DNA of 9,253 nucleotides, taken from the IMG/VR virus record IMGVR_UViG_2713896781_000016. One strand, given 5' to 3'. Numbering within the stretch: position 1 is the stretch's first letter; every line of letters begins with the position of its first letter. Shown piece by piece: positions 1,032 to 9,253 of the stretch. The notes beneath the pieces were generated by a model. It searched no databases. It had not been told where the DNA came from and was given only the letters and a program-made list of their open reading frames with translations. Source of the stretch: a virus. Lineage: Duplodnaviria; Heunggongvirae; Uroviricota; Caudoviricetes. The position numbers and the translations under genes are program-made.

Positions 1032-1376
1032 TTACTTTAATAATTTCAGTGCCTTTACATCAACTTCAACACTGCTCAGGTCTTTATCAATTTCACCCTC
1101 AATTCTTACTTTGTCTTTCGGAGAAACATTCTGCCCGGCCCATACGCTGTCATCAATATCCGTGACAATTGTCCCGCTATTGTCACGAAACTCATAACGT
1201 TCATCACCCACTTTTTTAACGATGCTCCCTTCAAGGATAACCCATGCATCATCCTTCAGTTCTTTTGCCTGCGCTACTGTTGAACGCTCTGCTTCTGGCC
1301 CCTGGAAACCACCCTGCTGTGCAAAAGCGCCAAAAGACACACCGGAAATAAGTGCTGCAATCAATACCTTTTTCAT
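1032..1376 (-). CDS. BOF (YgiW/YdeI) family periplasmic OB-fold protein with signal peptide
   Basis: 114 aa; N-terminal MKKVLIAALISGVSFGAFA signal peptide; body ILEGSIVKKVGDERYEFRDNSGTIVTDIDDSVWAGQNV matches the BOF pattern from memory. ATG at 1376 with AGAGGA SD. Confidence 0.8.
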   Translation of the reverse strand: MKKVLIAALISGVSFGAFAQQGGFQGPEAERSTVAQAKELKDDAWVILEGSIVKKVGDERYEFRDNSGTIVTDIDDSVWAGQNVSPKDKVRIEGEIDKDLSSVEVDVKALKLLK

Positions 1377-4463: not shown

Positions 4464-5210
4464 TTACTTCACAACCCTCTGATTGCTGACATTTGGACGC
4501 CAGCTATCCCAGTTAAACGTCACCCACCGACCACCGTTCATGGTCATGCGGTCCATAATCCTCTCACCAAGAAGCGTGCTCATTGCGGCATGATTCAGGT
4601 TTGTTAACATCCCGACACTGCACAGTGATGCTGTCCGGCGATCAATTATCTGGTGTAATACCACCTGCTCGTTTTTCGTCTCCCGCTGAACGCCTATTTC
4701 ATCCAGGACCAGCAAATCAACACTGCAAAGCTCCTGTAAAAATTTTTCCCCGGATTTGCCGTTGTCGTAGCTGTCATGCAACACGCTCATGACATCAGAC
4801 ACGGTGACGATAATCACGCTGCGCCCCTTCGCCATCAGCCGGTTACCCATCGCCGCTGCAAGGTGATTTTTCCCGGTGCCGGTTTTACCGCTGAACACAA
4901 AATTCGTGCACCCGGTCATCAGTTCGTCAGCTATGGATTTGGCCTGGCTCAGCGCGTATTTTTGCCCGTCGTTCTGCACCTGATAATTCGCAAACGAGCA
5001 TTTGCTGTGCAGAGGCTGGATGCCCGAACGATTCAGGATTTTTTCCACCCGCAACTGGTGATTCTGGCGGTTAATCTCCTCGCTGCGTTTTCGTCCTTCA
5101 ACAAGTTGCCATTCCCGCCACTCCTCCACCGTCCGGTACGGTGGAACCGACGCCTGTGGTGCAAGTCTGCGAATACGTTCAAGAACCCCGGCTGCCGCAA
5201 TGTTTTTCAT
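4464..5210 (-). CDS. DnaC-type replicative helicase loader (AAA+ ATPase)
   Basis: 248 aa; Walker A FVFSGKTGTGKNHLAAA, Walker B LLVLDEIGVQ, and C-terminal GMLTN...LGERIMDRM...WVTFNWDSWR closely parallel E. coli DnaC as recalled. ATG at 5210, 6 nt after the O-like stop. Confidence 0.9.
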   Translation of the reverse strand: MKNIAAAGVLERIRRLAPQASVPPYRTVEEWREWQLVEGRKRSEEINRQNHQLRVEKILNRSGIQPLHSKCSFANYQVQNDGQKYALSQAKSIADELMTGCTNFVFSGKTGTGKNHLAAAMGNRLMAKGRSVIIVTVSDVMSVLHDSYDNGKSGEKFLQELCSVDLLVLDEIGVQRETKNEQVVLHQIIDRRTASLCSVGMLTNLNHAAMSTLLGERIMDRMTMNGGRWVTFNWDSWRPNVSNQRVVK

Positions 5211-5216
5211 GCCACA

Positions 5217-6299
5217 TCACCCCCTGAATCCCGGCGGAATTTCGGTATCCGGTTCAGAAATATGATTCACACAACGCTGGTTGTTCGTGCCGCTTACCGG
5301 GAGCAACCAGGGGTTTTCAAAATTCCGGTCCGGCCCAAAAAACGTCGTCGCTCGCTGAACAAATTCCGTTCCCGTTTTCCCGGTAGCCGCCAGGTATCTT
5401 GCGTAACGCCTCACACCATCCAGTATGGCCTCTGGTGGCACCCCCTCGCGTAATCTGGCCTTCCAGGCACTGAAAGCGGATTTCTTCGGGTTTGCCCCAG
5501 CACGCAACGGGTATTCCCGCCAGACCTGTTCGAACACATCCGGATAATCCACTCGTCCCACAGGCTGCCCGGTGTTTTCCGGGACTACCCGATCGGCTTC
5601 CCGCTGAATGGCGGAATCGGCTTCAGGCTGCTGCAGTTGGTGTGATTGCTCCGGCCTTGCGGTCATCACCTGCTGCACAGCGCCCGAATCGGCTTTCAGC
5701 GCATACGCTGAATCGGCTTCCGGTGTCGTGCCTGCTGGCTGACCAGGATTGACGGTCTGAACATCCCCTGCCTGGTTCGTGGCGTTTTTTACGCCATGGA
5801 CCATAGTGTTTTGATCTTCTTGATCTGTATCTTTATCTGTATCTTTATCTGTATCTTTATCTGTCGTGACTCGTCGTGACATGTGCGTGACATTTCGTGA
5901 CGCGCCGTGACAATCGCCATTTTGTTCCCGCTTTCTTTCCCTCTCACGCTGCGCCCTCTTGCGCTCTGCCGGAGATTTTGCGGTTTGCGAAATATTGCCG
6001 TTGTCCTCTTTAAGCACCTGGCGTTTCTCCCATCCAGTGATTAAATCACCATCAAGTACCCGCCCCTGCATCGTCTGCAAAATTGAATCAATTACCTCTT
6101 CTGTCACGTCGAGCGCACTTGCCAAATCTTCTGTCGTGACATCAATGTGACCTCGCGTGACATTTCGTGACGCGCTCACCAGGAGGTGGATATACACTGC
6201 CATCACTGTTGCAATTGGCTGCCCTGACACCCTGGCAATTGTTCGCCACTTAGGGTCATTTGGCATGTCATGCCATAATCTGAGCCAAGCGTTAGCCAT
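5217..6299 (-). CDS. Phage replication initiation protein (lambda O-like replisome organiser) containing internal iteron arrays
   Basis: ATG at 6299 with GGAGG 5 nt upstream (track start 6305 is GTG). Immediately upstream of the DnaC-like gene. Central low-complexity linker (TDKD)x4 coincides with DNA tandem repeats and CGTGAC iterons, as with lambda ori inside O. Confidence 0.75.
   Translation of the reverse strand: MANAWLRLWHDMPNDPKWRTIARVSGQPIATVMAVYIHLLVSASRNVTRGHIDVTTEDLASALDVTEEVIDSILQTMQGRVLDGDLITGWEKRQVLKEDNGNISQTAKSPAERKRAQRERERKREQNGDCHGASRNVTHMSRRVTTDKDTDKDTDKDTDQEDQNTMVHGVKNATNQAGDVQTVNPGQPAGTTPEADSAYALKADSGAVQQVMTARPEQSHQLQQPEADSAIQREADRVVPENTGQPVGRVDYPDVFEQVWREYPLRAGANPKKSAFSAWKARLREGVPPEAILDGVRRYARYLAATGKTGTEFVQRATTFFGPDRNFENPWLLPVSGTNNQRCVNHISEPDTEIPPGFRG
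5823..5864. repeat. 12-bp tandem repeat (ATCTGTATCTTT) x3.5
   Basis: Exact units at 5823-5834, 5835-5846, 5847-5858 plus partial 5859-5864; encodes TDKDTDKDTDKD on the minus strand. Confidence 0.9.
5865..5911. repeat. Iteron array: five CGTGAC copies at 10-11 bp spacing (putative origin core)
   Basis: CGTGAC at 5865, 5875, 5886, 5896, 5906; followed by a pyrimidine/T-rich stretch 5912-5945. Confidence 0.6.
6103..6175. repeat. Second iteron cluster plus an exact 21-bp direct repeat of the first cluster
   Basis: CGTGAC at 6135, 6156, 6166; variant TGTGAC at 6146; inverted copy GTCACG at 6103-6108. GCGTGACATTTCGTGACGCGC is identical at 5885-5905 and 6155-6175. Confidence 0.55.
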
Positions 6300-6370
6300 A
6301 CTCACCTCCTCTGATACCGAATCTTTTTACTCACGAATTGCCGGAAGCGATTCGATATGGCTATTGTCAG

Positions 6371-6796
6371 TCAATGTACTGCCACAGCATTTCCTGCCGG
6401 GCCACCACGGTTCATCTGATTGAAACCGGCGATTGCCACTGCGACAAAATCATCAGCGTCTCTCACCAGTCGCTCCCGCGTCTCCACCAGCTCCCGAAAA
6501 TAAGTTGAACTGTGGCTGCGCATTCTGGCCACCAGCAAAGGTGGCATTGCCTTTTCGATCGCTGGTAACAACGCCTGAATTTTTTCAACTGCATCAGGGG
6601 TGTCTTTCTCTATCCAGCGGAAAATTTTCTGGGTATTGCGAGCCAGGGCTTCCGGATGGCTGTCGTCATACAGTTCCGGGAACGTCATACCCAGTTCGAA
6701 ATACGCTTTGGTAATCTTCGCAGTCGGTACTTTTTCGCCGTCCGGATGCGCCCAGGCATTCATCGCCATGCGGATGTGTTCATGCTTGATTTTCAT
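6371..6796 (-). CDS. YdaT-like protein (cII-analogous position), 141 aa
   Basis: Internal ATG at 6796 gives MKIKHEHIRMAMNAW..., matching the YdaT N-terminus as recalled; G-rich SD upstream. The track N-terminal extension to 6868 looks non-coding. Confidence 0.7.
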   Translation of the reverse strand: MKIKHEHIRMAMNAWAHPDGEKVPTAKITKAYFELGMTFPELYDDSHPEALARNTQKIFRWIEKDTPDAVEKIQALLPAIEKAMPPLLVARMRSHSSTYFRELVETRERLVRDADDFVAVAIAGFNQMNRGGPAGNAVAVH

Positions 6797-7022
6797 GAAT
6801 CCCCCCTTGGTTAGAAGGCGGATTATGATCAGAATCGGGAATGACAACCGTCGGTATGTGTAACTCATATTTGAGCGCCCCGGCAGTGACTGCCTGAATT
6901 AGCAACGCCCATTTCCACGGAACGTCTTCCCCCCACATGCTGACTGTGGTTTTTGACGTTCCTAGAGCGGCGGCTGTTTTAACAACTCCGCCAAAATAGC
7001 CTAATACTTCTGATTTTTTCAT
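6780..7022 (-). CDS. Cro/YdaS-like HTH regulator (80 aa)
   Basis: ATG at 7022 with GGAG 9 nt upstream; MKKSEVLGYFGGVVKTAAALGTSKTTVSMWGE is a Cro/YdaS-type HTH. Divergent from the repressor across a 91-bp operator region; 3' end overlaps the YdaT-like start by 17 nt. Confidence 0.8.
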   Translation of the reverse strand: MKKSEVLGYFGGVVKTAAALGTSKTTVSMWGEDVPWKWALLIQAVTAGALKYELHIPTVVIPDSDHNPPSNQGGIHENQA

Positions 7023-7050
7023 GAGTCGCTCCATAAAACTGAACGCCAAA

Positions 7051-7114
7051 AGTTTAATAATCAAAACCAAAGAAAGTCAAGAAACAAAACCATCTGTGTT
7101 TTAAAATCAAAACA
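7051..7114. promoter_or_regulatory. OR-like operator region with two GTTT-N8-AAAC palindromes (7051-7068 and 7097-7114) and a possible leaderless PRM (-10 TAAAAT at 7102-7107)
   Basis: aGTTTaataatcaAAACc at 7051-7068 and TGTTTTaaaatcAAAACA at 7097-7114; the latter abuts the repressor ATG at 7114, which has no SD. Confidence 0.5.
7052..7080 (-). promoter_or_regulatory. PR-like promoter for the cro operon (-35 TTGACT at 7080-7075, 17-bp spacer, -10 TAAACT at 7057-7052)
   Basis: Read on the reverse complement; same -10 hexamer as the PL-like promoter; overlapped by an operator-like palindrome at 7051-7068. Confidence 0.5.
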
Positions 7115-7752: not shown

Positions 7753-7780
7753 CCAACCTCATCTATTTGATTAACTGTAT

Positions 7781-7797
7781 GCCATCGTAGTGATGGC
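7781..7797 (+). terminator. Inverted repeat GCCATC-gtagt-GATGGC 29 nt after the repressor stop; possible weak terminator or protein-binding site
   Basis: Perfect 6-bp arms with 5-nt loop; no clear U-tract follows, so terminator function is uncertain. Confidence 0.3.
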
Positions 7798-7818
7798 GTA
7801 ACAGCTGCCTGCTTAAAA

Positions 7819-7865
7819 TGTTTTGATAAAAAAACATTGACCTTAAATGTTCATTTTTCTAAACT
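7819..7865 (+). promoter_or_regulatory. PL-like promoter (-35 TTGACC 7837-7842, 17-bp spacer, -10 TAAACT 7860-7865) with two operator-like palindromes
   Basis: TGTTTTgataaaAAAACA at 7819-7836 shares arms and 6-bp spacer with the OR site at 7097-7114; tGTTCatttttctAAACt at 7848-7865 overlaps the -10. Confidence 0.5.
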
Positions 7866-8044
7866 TCATTCATTCCCTCACCCCGCCCCACAGAATGCAG
7901 GGCAATACTTCGAGTTACCAGGCAGTGGTCAGGGGTTAAGTAGCCAGCCCGAGGCGTAAGAACATGACGGCAGGGTTCAACTTTAATAACTATGCAGCAG
8001 GTTTTTGTTCCGCTACCCCGGCGTTAAGGGGAAATGAGGTCAGC

Positions 8045-8197
8045 ATGGATACTATCGATCTTGGCAACAACGAATCTCTGGTATGTGGCGTGTTTCCCAA
8101 TCAGGACGGCACGTTTACCGCGATGACGTATACCAGAAGCAAAACGTTTAAAACTGAAGCTGGCGCGCGTCGCTGGTTAGCCAGAAACACTGACTGA
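8045..8197 (+). CDS. Small early-left protein (50 aa; alternative 77-aa form from ATG 7964), possibly YdaF/DUF1391-like
   Basis: ATG at 8045 with GAGG 5 nt upstream; MDTIDLGNNESLVCGVFPNQDGTFTAMTYTRSKTFKTEAGARRWLARNTD. Stop overlaps the next candidate start (TGATG). Family resemblance is recalled, not verified. Confidence 0.45.
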   Translation: MDTIDLGNNESLVCGVFPNQDGTFTAMTYTRSKTFKTEAGARRWLARNTD

Positions 8198-8208
8198 TGA
8201 GGTTGACG

Positions 8209-8847
8209 ATGGAATTTAAAGATTTACCTCCTTCAATCCAGGAGATTGCAGCACACACACTTCGTCATCGTCTGAACGAACTTGAATTGGAATCGGTAAC
8301 GAAAAAAGACACTGATAATATGGCTCGTAATGTGCGCGATGCGTTTACCGGATTGTATTTCTGTGCGTCTATAAATAAACACGACTCAGAGAGTGTGGCA
8401 AATAAAATTGCAGAAACGACAGCGCAAAACATCAATACGAAACCAACGGAAGAAGAAATTGATCAGTTTGCTCATGATGCTGGTTTAAAAAACAAGAAAG
8501 AAAAATCGCCATATGCGGGGAACATGTTTGTTTATGACAATCTCATCAGAATTCGTGGCGAAATTCCGGCGGAATACCTGGCAAGAGTCCATCAGGCATT
8601 GCTTAAAAATTTGGAAACAGAATTATTTGATGGCAACACTAACGGTTTCTTCATGGTATCAGGCCTTGATAAAGACTGGGATGCAGAAAAACGCTGGAAT
8701 GTTGCTACATGGTTATTCAGTAACAGAGCCGCTGCACTGGAAGCTTCGGCATGTATTTGCGGCCTGTTCTTAACAGACCACAAATATAATCTGGATGTGT
8801 ACAGTTATATTTACGCTGAACACGGTCCACTCTGGATTGACTGGTAA
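8209..8847 (+). CDS. Hypothetical protein (212 aa), second gene of the PL-like operon; no family recognised
   Basis: ATG at 8209 with GAGG 6 nt upstream (track start 8197 has no SD). Soluble-looking, no TM segment, no motif I can assign. Confidence 0.6.
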   Translation: MEFKDLPPSIQEIAAHTLRHRLNELELESVTKKDTDNMARNVRDAFTGLYFCASINKHDSESVANKIAETTAQNINTKPTEEEIDQFAHDAGLKNKKEKSPYAGNMFVYDNLIRIRGEIPAEYLARVHQALLKNLETELFDGNTNGFFMVSGLDKDWDAEKRWNVATWLFSNRAAALEASACICGLFLTDHKYNLDVYSYIYAEHGPLWIDW

Positions 8848-9057
8848 TTATAAGGAAACACCAGCAGGGCCGCGGCGACCAACAGAACGATTAAAATCAA
8901 TAATGCCATTATAAAGGACATTATTTAATTTATCGTCGAATGCTGATTCTGTGAGCCTCAACTCTGAATGAGTTTTTAATAACCCTGATTGCCTGAGTTG
9001 ATTTACCAGGCATTCAATCTGTTTTTCAATAAGCGGATTTCTTTTTTTGTTTGGCAT
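8848..9057 (-). CDS. Hypothetical small protein (69 aa) convergent with the 212-aa gene
   Basis: ATG at 9057 with GGAGGA 5 nt upstream; stop TAA at 8850-8848 is directly adjacent to the opposing TAA at 8845-8847. No family recognised. Confidence 0.35.
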   Translation of the reverse strand: MPNKKRNPLIEKQIECLVNQLRQSGLLKTHSELRLTESAFDDKLNNVLYNGIIDFNRSVGRRGPAGVSL

Positions 9058-9253
9058 TTTATCCTCCATTGAGGTTCTGGGTTAAAAATGGAGACCAACA
9101 CGCTGTCACGTGTGGTCGTGCGCCGGACACGGATAAGAATCCGGTACTGACAGTTTACTGAAAGGATATTTCCCTGAAAAGTCAGGGCATAACGCGAAAG
9201 CGTACGGCGAAGCTCTTTCCCTTAGAAGGCTTGTCGTTAGATTTCTTCGAACG

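Follow-up and report, generated by a model that had tools for sequence, protein, structure and literature searches.

A modular early protein and a convergent small gene in place of ydfB and ydfC in a probable dicBF-type operon of a Shiga-toxigenic Escherichia coli prophage

The 9,253-nucleotide stretch of DNA analyzed here, in the following called the window, comes from the Caudoviricetes record IMGVR_UViG_2713896781_000016 of IMG/VR and covers the region of a lambdoid Shiga-toxigenic Escherichia coli (STEC) prophage that holds its immunity and early genes. The present study deals with positions 8045-8847 of its plus strand, where an open reading frame (ORF) of 50 amino acids (aa) is followed by the gene for a 212-aa protein. 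Both frames are present as given in a preliminary description of this DNA, i.e. 50 codons at 8045-8197 and a second ORF ending at 8847. Our analysis indicates that the interval is very probably the promoter-proximal part of a dicBF-type early-left operon, in which the 212-aa gene and a convergent minus-strand gene for a 69-aa protein, here named p69, occupy the place of ydfB and ydfC. The following features of the window are central for the argument:

7097-7114, no strand, operator palindrome TGTTTTAAAATCAAAACA of the cI/cro switch, exact match to TGTTTT-N6-AAAACA, overlapping the repressor start codon
7114-7752, plus strand, cI-type repressor of 212 aa with the domains HTH_3 (2.4e-4) and Peptidase_S24 (8.2e-13), phrog_4, transcriptional repressor
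7819-7836, no strand, left operator palindrome TGTTTTGATAAAAAAACA, 18 bp, exact match to TGTTTT-N6-AAAACA, abutting the -35 hexamer
7837-7865, plus strand, promoter equivalent to PL or dicBp, TTGACC (7837-7842), 17 nucleotides (nt), TAAACT (7860-7865), from a sigma-70 consensus scan
7866-8044, plus strand, 5' leader of the operon, homologous to Qin of strain K-12 from about 8005
8045-8197, plus strand, ydfA orthologue (DUF1391, PF07151), 50 aa, 90% identical to K-12 YdfA
8209-8382, plus strand, N-terminal helical 'EFKDLP' module of the 212-aa protein, residues 1-58, helices predicted, common to many proteins with unrelated C-termini
8383-8499, plus strand, acidic helical linker of the 212-aa protein, residues 59-97, charge -3, reassorting apart from the N- and C-modules
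8500-8847, plus strand, C-terminal alpha/beta module of the 212-aa protein, residues 98-212, strand order b-b-a-b-b-a-b
8848-9057, minus strand, p69, gene for a basic 69-aa protein, phrog_4274 (unknown function), its stop abutting the stop of the 212-aa gene, GGAGG 5 nt before ATG 9057
9058-9253, plus strand, start of the conserved untranslated leader to DicF, homology to the K-12 Qin backbone resuming at about 9115

The 50-aa ORF had been regarded as unassigned; it matches PF07151 with 100.3 bits (cutoff 27.3, E 4.6e-29) over profile positions 1-47 of 48 and is DUF1391/YdfA. Relative to the repressor it holds the same position as in K-12, being the first gene past the repressor-controlled promoter. 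The ratio of nonsynonymous to synonymous substitution rates (dN/dS), for which here and below comparisons with at least about six synonymous differences were used, is 0.09-0.16 for ydfA and points to purifying selection. The gene belongs to the backbone of the operon, where it co-occurs with ydfB/ydfC and many other partners, and it is absent at some loci that have the 212-aa gene (L068, L073 and L078). In the literature searched, DUF1391 was mentioned in one unrelated genome-wide association paper.

The assignment to the dicBF type is based, among other things, on what follows ydfA. In the near-identical prophages at loci L001 and L002 the same strand continues past the window with DicF, dicB, a DUF1482/ydfD-like gene, recE and int (all of them annotated), which gives the order repressor, ydfA, X, DicF, dicB, ydfD, recE, int, with X as the slot of the 212-aa gene. 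DicF was located at 13644-13695 of L002 (Rfam, 75 bits), its start lying about 143 nt beyond the window end. Hence, the two-gene operon of the preliminary description is too short, because the unit runs on to DicF and dicB in these prophages. In the alignment with K-12 Qin two homologous blocks are seen: one starts about 40 nt ahead of ydfA and ends with this gene, the other starts at about 9115 and covers the long leader up to DicF. The interval enclosed by these anchors contains ydfB and ydfC in K-12, but the 212-aa gene and p69 in the window; counterparts of YdfB and YdfC were not found in the window. Since ydfB and ydfC are replaced, the operon represents a variant of dicBF. The immunity side is in agreement with this assignment. 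The proposal of an early-left, repressor-controlled unit next to a cI-type repressor holds at the level of the sequence: a CI-like repressor with helix-turn-helix (HTH) and S24 domains is present, P22_Cro and YdaT-like genes diverge from it on the other strand, and the promoter upstream of ydfA is abutted by a palindrome with half-sites identical to those of the cI/cro operator. In K-12, DicF is processed from a polycistronic ydfABC-dicF-dicB-ydfD transcript, and the function of ydfA, ydfB and ydfC is given as unknown (PMC5069750, PMC10448788). Collectively, Qin of K-12 (dicA/dicC, dicBp, ydfA-ydfB-ydfC-dicF-dicB-ydfD) shares with the window a divergent repressor/cro pair, a repressor-controlled promoter before ydfA, a YdfA of 90% identity and the same long leader to DicF with dicB and a DUF1482 gene behind it. 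It differs in the genes of the ydfB/ydfC slot and in its immunity, which is based on the 135-aa DicA instead of the 212-aa HTH and S24 repressor found here.

A PL-like promoter with two operator-like sites had been proposed ahead of ydfA. The promoter TTGACC-17-TAAACT and one strong operator could be retained, while the candidate second operator (7847-7864) is weak with mismatches at 4 of 12 positions. The promoter match is by itself not above chance, with three consensus matches in the window compared to 4.2 expected in shuffles. The palindrome TGTTTT-N6-AAAACA, which has 12 specified bases, was found exactly twice in the window, at 7819-7836 and at 7097-7114, at a chance expectation of about 0.0006 exact matches per 9.2 kb. 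These matching palindromes at the promoter and at the cI/cro switch are predicted operators and look like an OL/OR set. In K-12, DicA represses dicBp, and the authors of PMC10448788 predict that it acts via operators overlapping dicBp. In the alignment with K-12 the promoter/operator region has no sequence relation to that of Qin, which is expected because the immunity type differs.

The 212-aa gene had been described as coupled to the upstream ORF by TGATG. This motif is indeed present at 8194-8198 and its ATG opens a frame of 216 codons, but the start common to all homologues and used in RefSeq is ATG 8209 (MEFKDLP...), which lies 12 nt past the ydfA stop with GAGG ahead. Hence, ydfA and the 212-aa gene are close-packed, not strictly TGATG-coupled. 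The encoded protein (8209-8847) is soluble and acidic with an isoelectric point (pI) of 5.2. The statement that it belongs to no family holds for characterised families: neither the single sequence nor a profile gave a match in Pfam, NCBIfam, PADLOC or PDB sequences, and structure searches yielded no specific fold either. The protein is nevertheless catalogued, with a full-length match to phrog_2151 ('Ybl81') at E 2.7e-147 (residues 5-216 of the 216-codon frame, profile positions 1-212 of 212), and the exact sequence occurs on at least 998 contigs, where it is annotated as hypothetical or with the UniRef name 'Ybl81'. Literature searches found nothing on Ybl81 or WP_000394548. The 212-aa protein is thus a member of a catalogued but uncharacterised family.

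Full-length relatives with at least 65% identity were found in Escherichia, a few Salmonella and one organism labelled only Enterobacteriaceae. A profile search of 1.84 billion cluster representatives returned a single full-length cluster, two distant relatives of the C-module and otherwise proteins that have only the N-module. DNA of the C-module is present in 600 of 5,426 complete E. coli genomes at 751 places. No match of the C-module was found by tblastn in 50,697 isolated-phage records, and none in GTDB species-representative genomes. The dN/dS values are 0.15-0.23 for the C-terminal module (at a dS of about 0.5) and 0.3-0.7 for the N-terminal module. Accordingly, both ydfA and the 212-aa gene are real genes under purifying selection. 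It is extremely unlikely that the ORF is decaying or without function in a defective prophage. Most prophages of E. coli O157 are defective, and the absence from the isolated phages, the occurrence mainly in STEC prophages and occasional frameshifted copies would fit such an explanation; however, it is largely refuted by the selection on the C-module, and both the C-module gene and p69 are intact in 70 of the 80 IMG/VR loci with the C-module. Moreover, homologues from Salmonella are still recognisable at about 30% identity, and the domain is predicted with confidence.

The 212-aa protein has a mosaic structure with three pieces that reassort independently of each other, the helical EFKDLP module, the acidic linker and an alpha/beta sandwich of about 115 aa. 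For example, the identities of N-module, linker and C-module to the window are 47, 70 and 83% at L076, 66, 89 and 83% at L067, and 83, 68 and 83% at L073. The EFKDLP module was found in 74 phage records, Stx2a phages among them, and about 11 different C-terminal clusters stand behind it in 153 non-redundant IMG/VR loci. AlphaFold2 predicted the whole protein with a mean local confidence (pLDDT) of 66. For the C-module modelled separately, with an alignment that included Salmonella homologues, the prediction reached a pLDDT of 80 and a predicted template modelling score (pTM) of 0.74 for a b-b-a-b-b-a-b sandwich. Structure searches with this model gave no specific fold match; the fold is a generic alpha/beta sandwich. 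An identity as 'cysteine protease' (Prp/YsxB-like), suggested by entries in BFVD, was rejected, because the matches are weak (template modelling scores not above 0.40) and neither Cys nor His is conserved in the family.

Sequence conservation in the C-module gives some hints on its mode of action. The motifs P..M..Y..LI.I.G.IP..Y and FDG..NG are kept in the Salmonella proteins P0152 and P0140. Alignment columns that do not vary between E. coli and Salmonella are for the most part hydrophobic and include the FDGxxNG loop; the only polar ones are D141, N145 and E178, and Cys, His or Ser are found in none of them. Because of this pattern and because the modules are swapped like adaptor domains, the 212-aa protein seems somewhat more likely to act by binding than by catalysis. 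The C-module is similar to ACT and ferredoxin-like beta-alpha-beta-beta-alpha-beta domains only at the level of the common fold. A Pfam ACT match and a ligand-binding motif were not found, and neither a profile match nor a strong specific structural match places the module among the ACT domains.

The gene p69, which was not included in the preliminary description, directly faces the C-module. Its product is of opposite charge (pI 9.7) to the 212-aa protein and is under purifying selection as well (dN/dS 0.19-0.27). DNA of p69 was found in 597 complete E. coli genomes at 744 places, i.e. in numbers close to those of the C-module. No match of p69 was detected in Pfam, NCBIfam, PDB or PADLOC and none in isolated phages (tblastn). 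At L078 and L088 (about 4523-5281, minus strand) it is replaced by a protein of 172-252 aa with two Cys-x2-Cys motifs, which belongs to phrog_1244 of unknown function and has no significant Pfam and no PADLOC match. The fold of the leader is not significant (z = -1.9). We also considered that the minus-strand ORF is part of an establishment (pRE/pE-like) transcript; this was dismissed, because such a transcript would be antisense to the repressor gene in E. coli and in the same direction as the repressor in the Salmonella elements, which permits no common model.

The slot of p69 is known from the Rac prophage of K-12 (L176, 2172-2812), where the minus-strand gene sieB meets the DUF1391 gene ydaF of the early-left operon head-on with a 4-nt overlap. 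Hence, this minus-strand slot is known to hold a superinfection-exclusion gene. Rac differs from the window in that sieB (162 aa by its coordinates) has no detected similarity to p69, and it has no gene with an EFKDLP module between ydaF and sieB. The small RNA (sRNA) kilS lies just beyond in Rac. It is therefore p69 and not the 212-aa gene that stands in a sieB-like position. This is relevant for the initial proposal that ydfA and the 212-aa gene form a self-contained operon for exclusion or host takeover like rexAB or sieB, which we consider improbable. The lambda genes rexAB and sieB likewise belong to the variable accessory genes that lambdoid phages have in their immunity-left region; however, in the lysogen rexAB is transcribed together with cI and sieB from an active promoter of its own, whereas the 212-aa gene lies downstream of a repressed PL-type promoter, which speaks against its expression in lysogens; therefore the analogy fits poorly. 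Similarity to RexAB or SieB was found neither for the 212-aa protein nor for p69 in Pfam, annotated PHROGs, NCBIfam and PADLOC. The location in a variable region next to the repressor and the close packing of both genes speak for a self-contained exclusion unit, as does the protection against some phages that is ascribed to DicB of the same operon in PMC6832061. On the other hand, ydfA is a backbone gene with many partners that is missing from some loci with the 212-aa gene, the transcription unit continues to DicF and dicB, and no similarity to any PADLOC model was found.

The region between ydfA and the dicF leader is not only variable in this prophage. Most C-terminal clusters behind the EFKDLP module face a minus-strand small ORF of their own, which overlaps or abuts their 3' end (L096-L320). 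At least five of these alternative small ORFs have PHROG entries of their own, all of unknown function (4987, 10133, 18692, 7249 and 6315); for the others a PHROG match was either absent or not looked for. Several of the small ORFs have the same leader and Shine-Dalgarno context, ATGGAGGATAAAATG, adjacent to the conserved dicF leader, which is also conserved in Salmonella elements. Taken together, the site behaves as a cassette-exchange hotspot that reaches P2-like elements of Salmonella.

In these Salmonella elements, which contain int, an HTH repressor and Cox (int-C-Cox), the only distant relatives of the C-module are encoded, P0152 and P0140, with 29-39% identity in this module. Their N-module is different (MFNVKRNG...) and shows the same pattern of variable C-termini behind a conserved N-terminus. 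Homologues of p69 with 46-52% identity converge on the P0152 and P0140 genes with overlapping 3' ends, while Salmonella loci with other C-termini have a different convergent small ORF instead of p69. In the Salmonella proteins P0256 and P0282 (L321, 2501-2953) the EFKDLP module is found as C-terminal fusion to the MFNVKRNG module (blastp E 1e-4), hence modules are shuffled in both orders. The int-C-Cox elements also encode a C4 antisense RNA (Rfam RF01695, 72 bits; L089 4491-4578 and L092 4580-4667), and DicF was not detected in the Salmonella loci that were fetched.

An XRE HTH domain is sometimes inserted between N-module and C-module in the Salmonella proteins, such that HTH and C-module are in one polypeptide (P0140, P0209-P0216). 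Together with the ACT/ArgR-like fold, this finding raises the question whether the 212-aa protein is a regulatory subunit that does not bind DNA, an antirepressor or modulator of the lysis-lysogeny decision, with the C-module as ACT/ArgR-C-like domain for oligomerisation or ligand sensing. Such a role would have a counterpart in Qin, where according to PMC10448788 the antirepressor Rem controls dicBp. We regard it as rather unlikely, since the E. coli protein has no HTH and no Pfam ACT match, and since cassette-like variation at a constant repressor type is not what one would expect of a regulator.

Our best overall explanation, to which we would assign a probability of roughly 35%, is a dicBF-type operon with a mosaic binding protein and with p69 as its cognate partner. 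We infer with moderate confidence that synthesis of the 212-aa protein would require inactivation of the repressor and would take place along with that of the division inhibitors. With low confidence, the C-module and p69 could form a cognate pair with opposite expression regimes. p69 would then be the lysogen-side gene, in the slot held by sieB in Rac, and the 212-aa protein its early lytic-side counterpart, acting as neutraliser or escape factor. Head-on transcription and the antisense overlap of the 3' ends might make the expression of the two genes mutually exclusive, a logic that would resemble exclusion plus escape or a defence with self-immunity. In support of the pairing, the C-module and p69 are found in 600 and 597 genomes, respectively, while the flanking backbone occurs in many more, as parts of the stretch 7753-9253 are present in 4,407 of the 5,426 complete E. 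coli genomes and at least 80% of it in 564 genomes only. The abutting stops, the opposite charges, the 70 loci with both genes intact, the convergent pairs in Salmonella with p69 missing behind other C-termini, and the position of sieB in Rac also speak for the pairing. That p69 is the cognate partner of the C-module is nonetheless a tentative proposal.

Several observations weigh against it. Both genes are enclosed by one pair of recombination anchors, with the N-module to the left and the conserved leader to the right, therefore their linkage alone proves little. A search for a sigma-70 promoter of p69 gave no convincing candidate; in the single consensus match the -10 element falls on the start codon, and this match was not relied on. 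The 212-aa gene is intact but p69 is replaced at three loci (L078, L082 and L088), and conversely p69 is retained next to a broken 212-aa gene at three others (L063, L064 and L072). Finally, there are two other families of minus-strand ORFs shared by E. coli and Salmonella, in which the C-terminus of the facing plus-strand gene is not detectably conserved beyond the overlap, such that co-conservation of C-terminus and small gene is seen in only one of three cassette families.

Since no promoter could be identified for p69, and in view of the shared anchors, the two unconserved families and the losses of single genes, it is almost as likely that the two accessory genes are unrelated and merely share a recombination cassette. 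In this case the 212-aa protein could be an early-lytic binding protein directed at the host or at defences (host takeover or anti-defence), and p69 an independent moron, e.g. an exclusion factor. The conservation of the anchors on both sides, Salmonella included, and the many alternative minus-strand ORFs of the hotspot would be consistent with such an independent origin. It is less easily reconciled with the joint occurrence of C-module and p69 over deep divergence (29-39% and 46-52% identity, respectively) behind different N-modules, and with the head-to-head 3' overlap in almost every cassette type, which is unusual for unrelated genes. A wider version of the cognate-pair explanation, which we consider unlikely, would include the sibling cassettes. 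They and the C-module/p69 pair would represent an unrecognised class of prophage modules, in which a small exclusion or defence protein expressed in the lysogen is opposed by a cognate early-lytic neutraliser carried in a modular protein. Such head-to-head pairs would be housed in a hypervariable hotspot of lambdoid dicBF and Salmonella int-C-Cox early operons and be mutually exclusive via convergent transcription.

Among known systems, the proposed pair shares some principles with BstA/aba, which likewise combines a lysogen-side function with a lytic-side element that spares its own prophage and is located in the immunity region (PMC8585504; the model for the present pair is of low confidence). 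There is no homology. BstA is a single protein of about 300 aa and its antidote is a DNA element inside its own gene. Polymorphic toxin/immunity systems such as contact-dependent inhibition (CDI) and Rhs have in common with our cassettes a conserved N-terminus, swappable C-terminal modules and an adjacent small gene that changes with the C-terminus. They differ, because neither a domain for secretion or delivery nor a recognised toxin domain was detected here by profile searches, the small gene runs convergently instead of co-directionally, and co-variation is limited to one of three cassette families. The genes do not look like a type II toxin-antitoxin system either: they are convergent, and no domains of this kind were found in Pfam and PADLOC. 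In a few loci either gene is intact without the other; as repression of the 212-aa gene is to be expected in lysogens, this carries little weight for or against addiction.

The surroundings fit to a lambdoid prophage. The stretch 7753-9253 shares 99.2-99.6% identity with prophages in the chromosomes of O145:H28, O157:H7 and O121 strains. The repressor shows a weak match to the DicA subfamily across its N-terminus. It is full-length with 212 aa in the window, whereas in the otherwise near-identical O145/O157 prophages (L001/L002, 11662-12000) only a C-terminal 'LexA family protein' of 112 aa is annotated; the N-terminal half of these copies may be truncated or different. The following further genes were assigned:

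4464-5210, minus strand, DnaC/IstB-like gene, by profile search
5217-6305, minus strand, gene for 362 aa in the position of the lambda O replication gene, no significant family match
6371-6868, minus strand, YdaT/CII-like gene, by profile search
6780-7070, minus strand, P22_Cro-type gene, by Pfam/PHROG profile search
also on the minus strand, DUF1627 and DUF551 genes, by profile search

Within the 362-aa gene, positions 5818-5912 contain tandem repeats, a 12-bp unit in 3.9 copies coding DKDT repeats followed by a 10-bp unit in 4.9 copies, which by analogy to lambda O may be the iterons of an intragenic origin. A hok/sok-type locus is located at 1503-1857 on the minus strand (Rfam sok, 113.5 bits at 1683-1857). 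Its Hok-like ORF is broken by a run of 50 N (1621-1670), hence the window comes from a draft assembly. An ORF of 114 aa at 1032-1376 (minus strand) is a typical moron inside the prophage; the gene at the equivalent position of L002 is annotated as a NirD/YgiW/YdeI family stress tolerance protein.

The sequences discussed here are catalogued and the operon type is known. In the literature searched, no paper naming the 212-aa protein or its family and none describing this dicBF variant was found. Hence, the dicBF operon with ydfB/ydfC replaced by a modular early protein and a convergent small gene appears to be undescribed, and so do the cassette-exchange hotspot at this site and the cassette shared with Salmonella P2-like elements. 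The dicBF operon has been connected to cell division, metabolism, phage resistance and the virulence of enterohaemorrhagic E. coli, while the promoter-proximal genes are listed as having no known function in PMC5069750 and PMC10448788. In about 11% of the complete E. coli genomes, mostly STEC, these promoter-proximal genes are replaced by the modular early protein and the convergent small gene. Even if the pairs are not cognate, the analysis provides a cleaner annotation with regard to YdfA, the dicBF variant and the domain boundaries of an orphan family. If they are indeed cognate lytic and lysogenic antagonists, the prophages by which STEC genomes are shaped would contain, in this hotspot, a new reservoir of phage-versus-phage functions.

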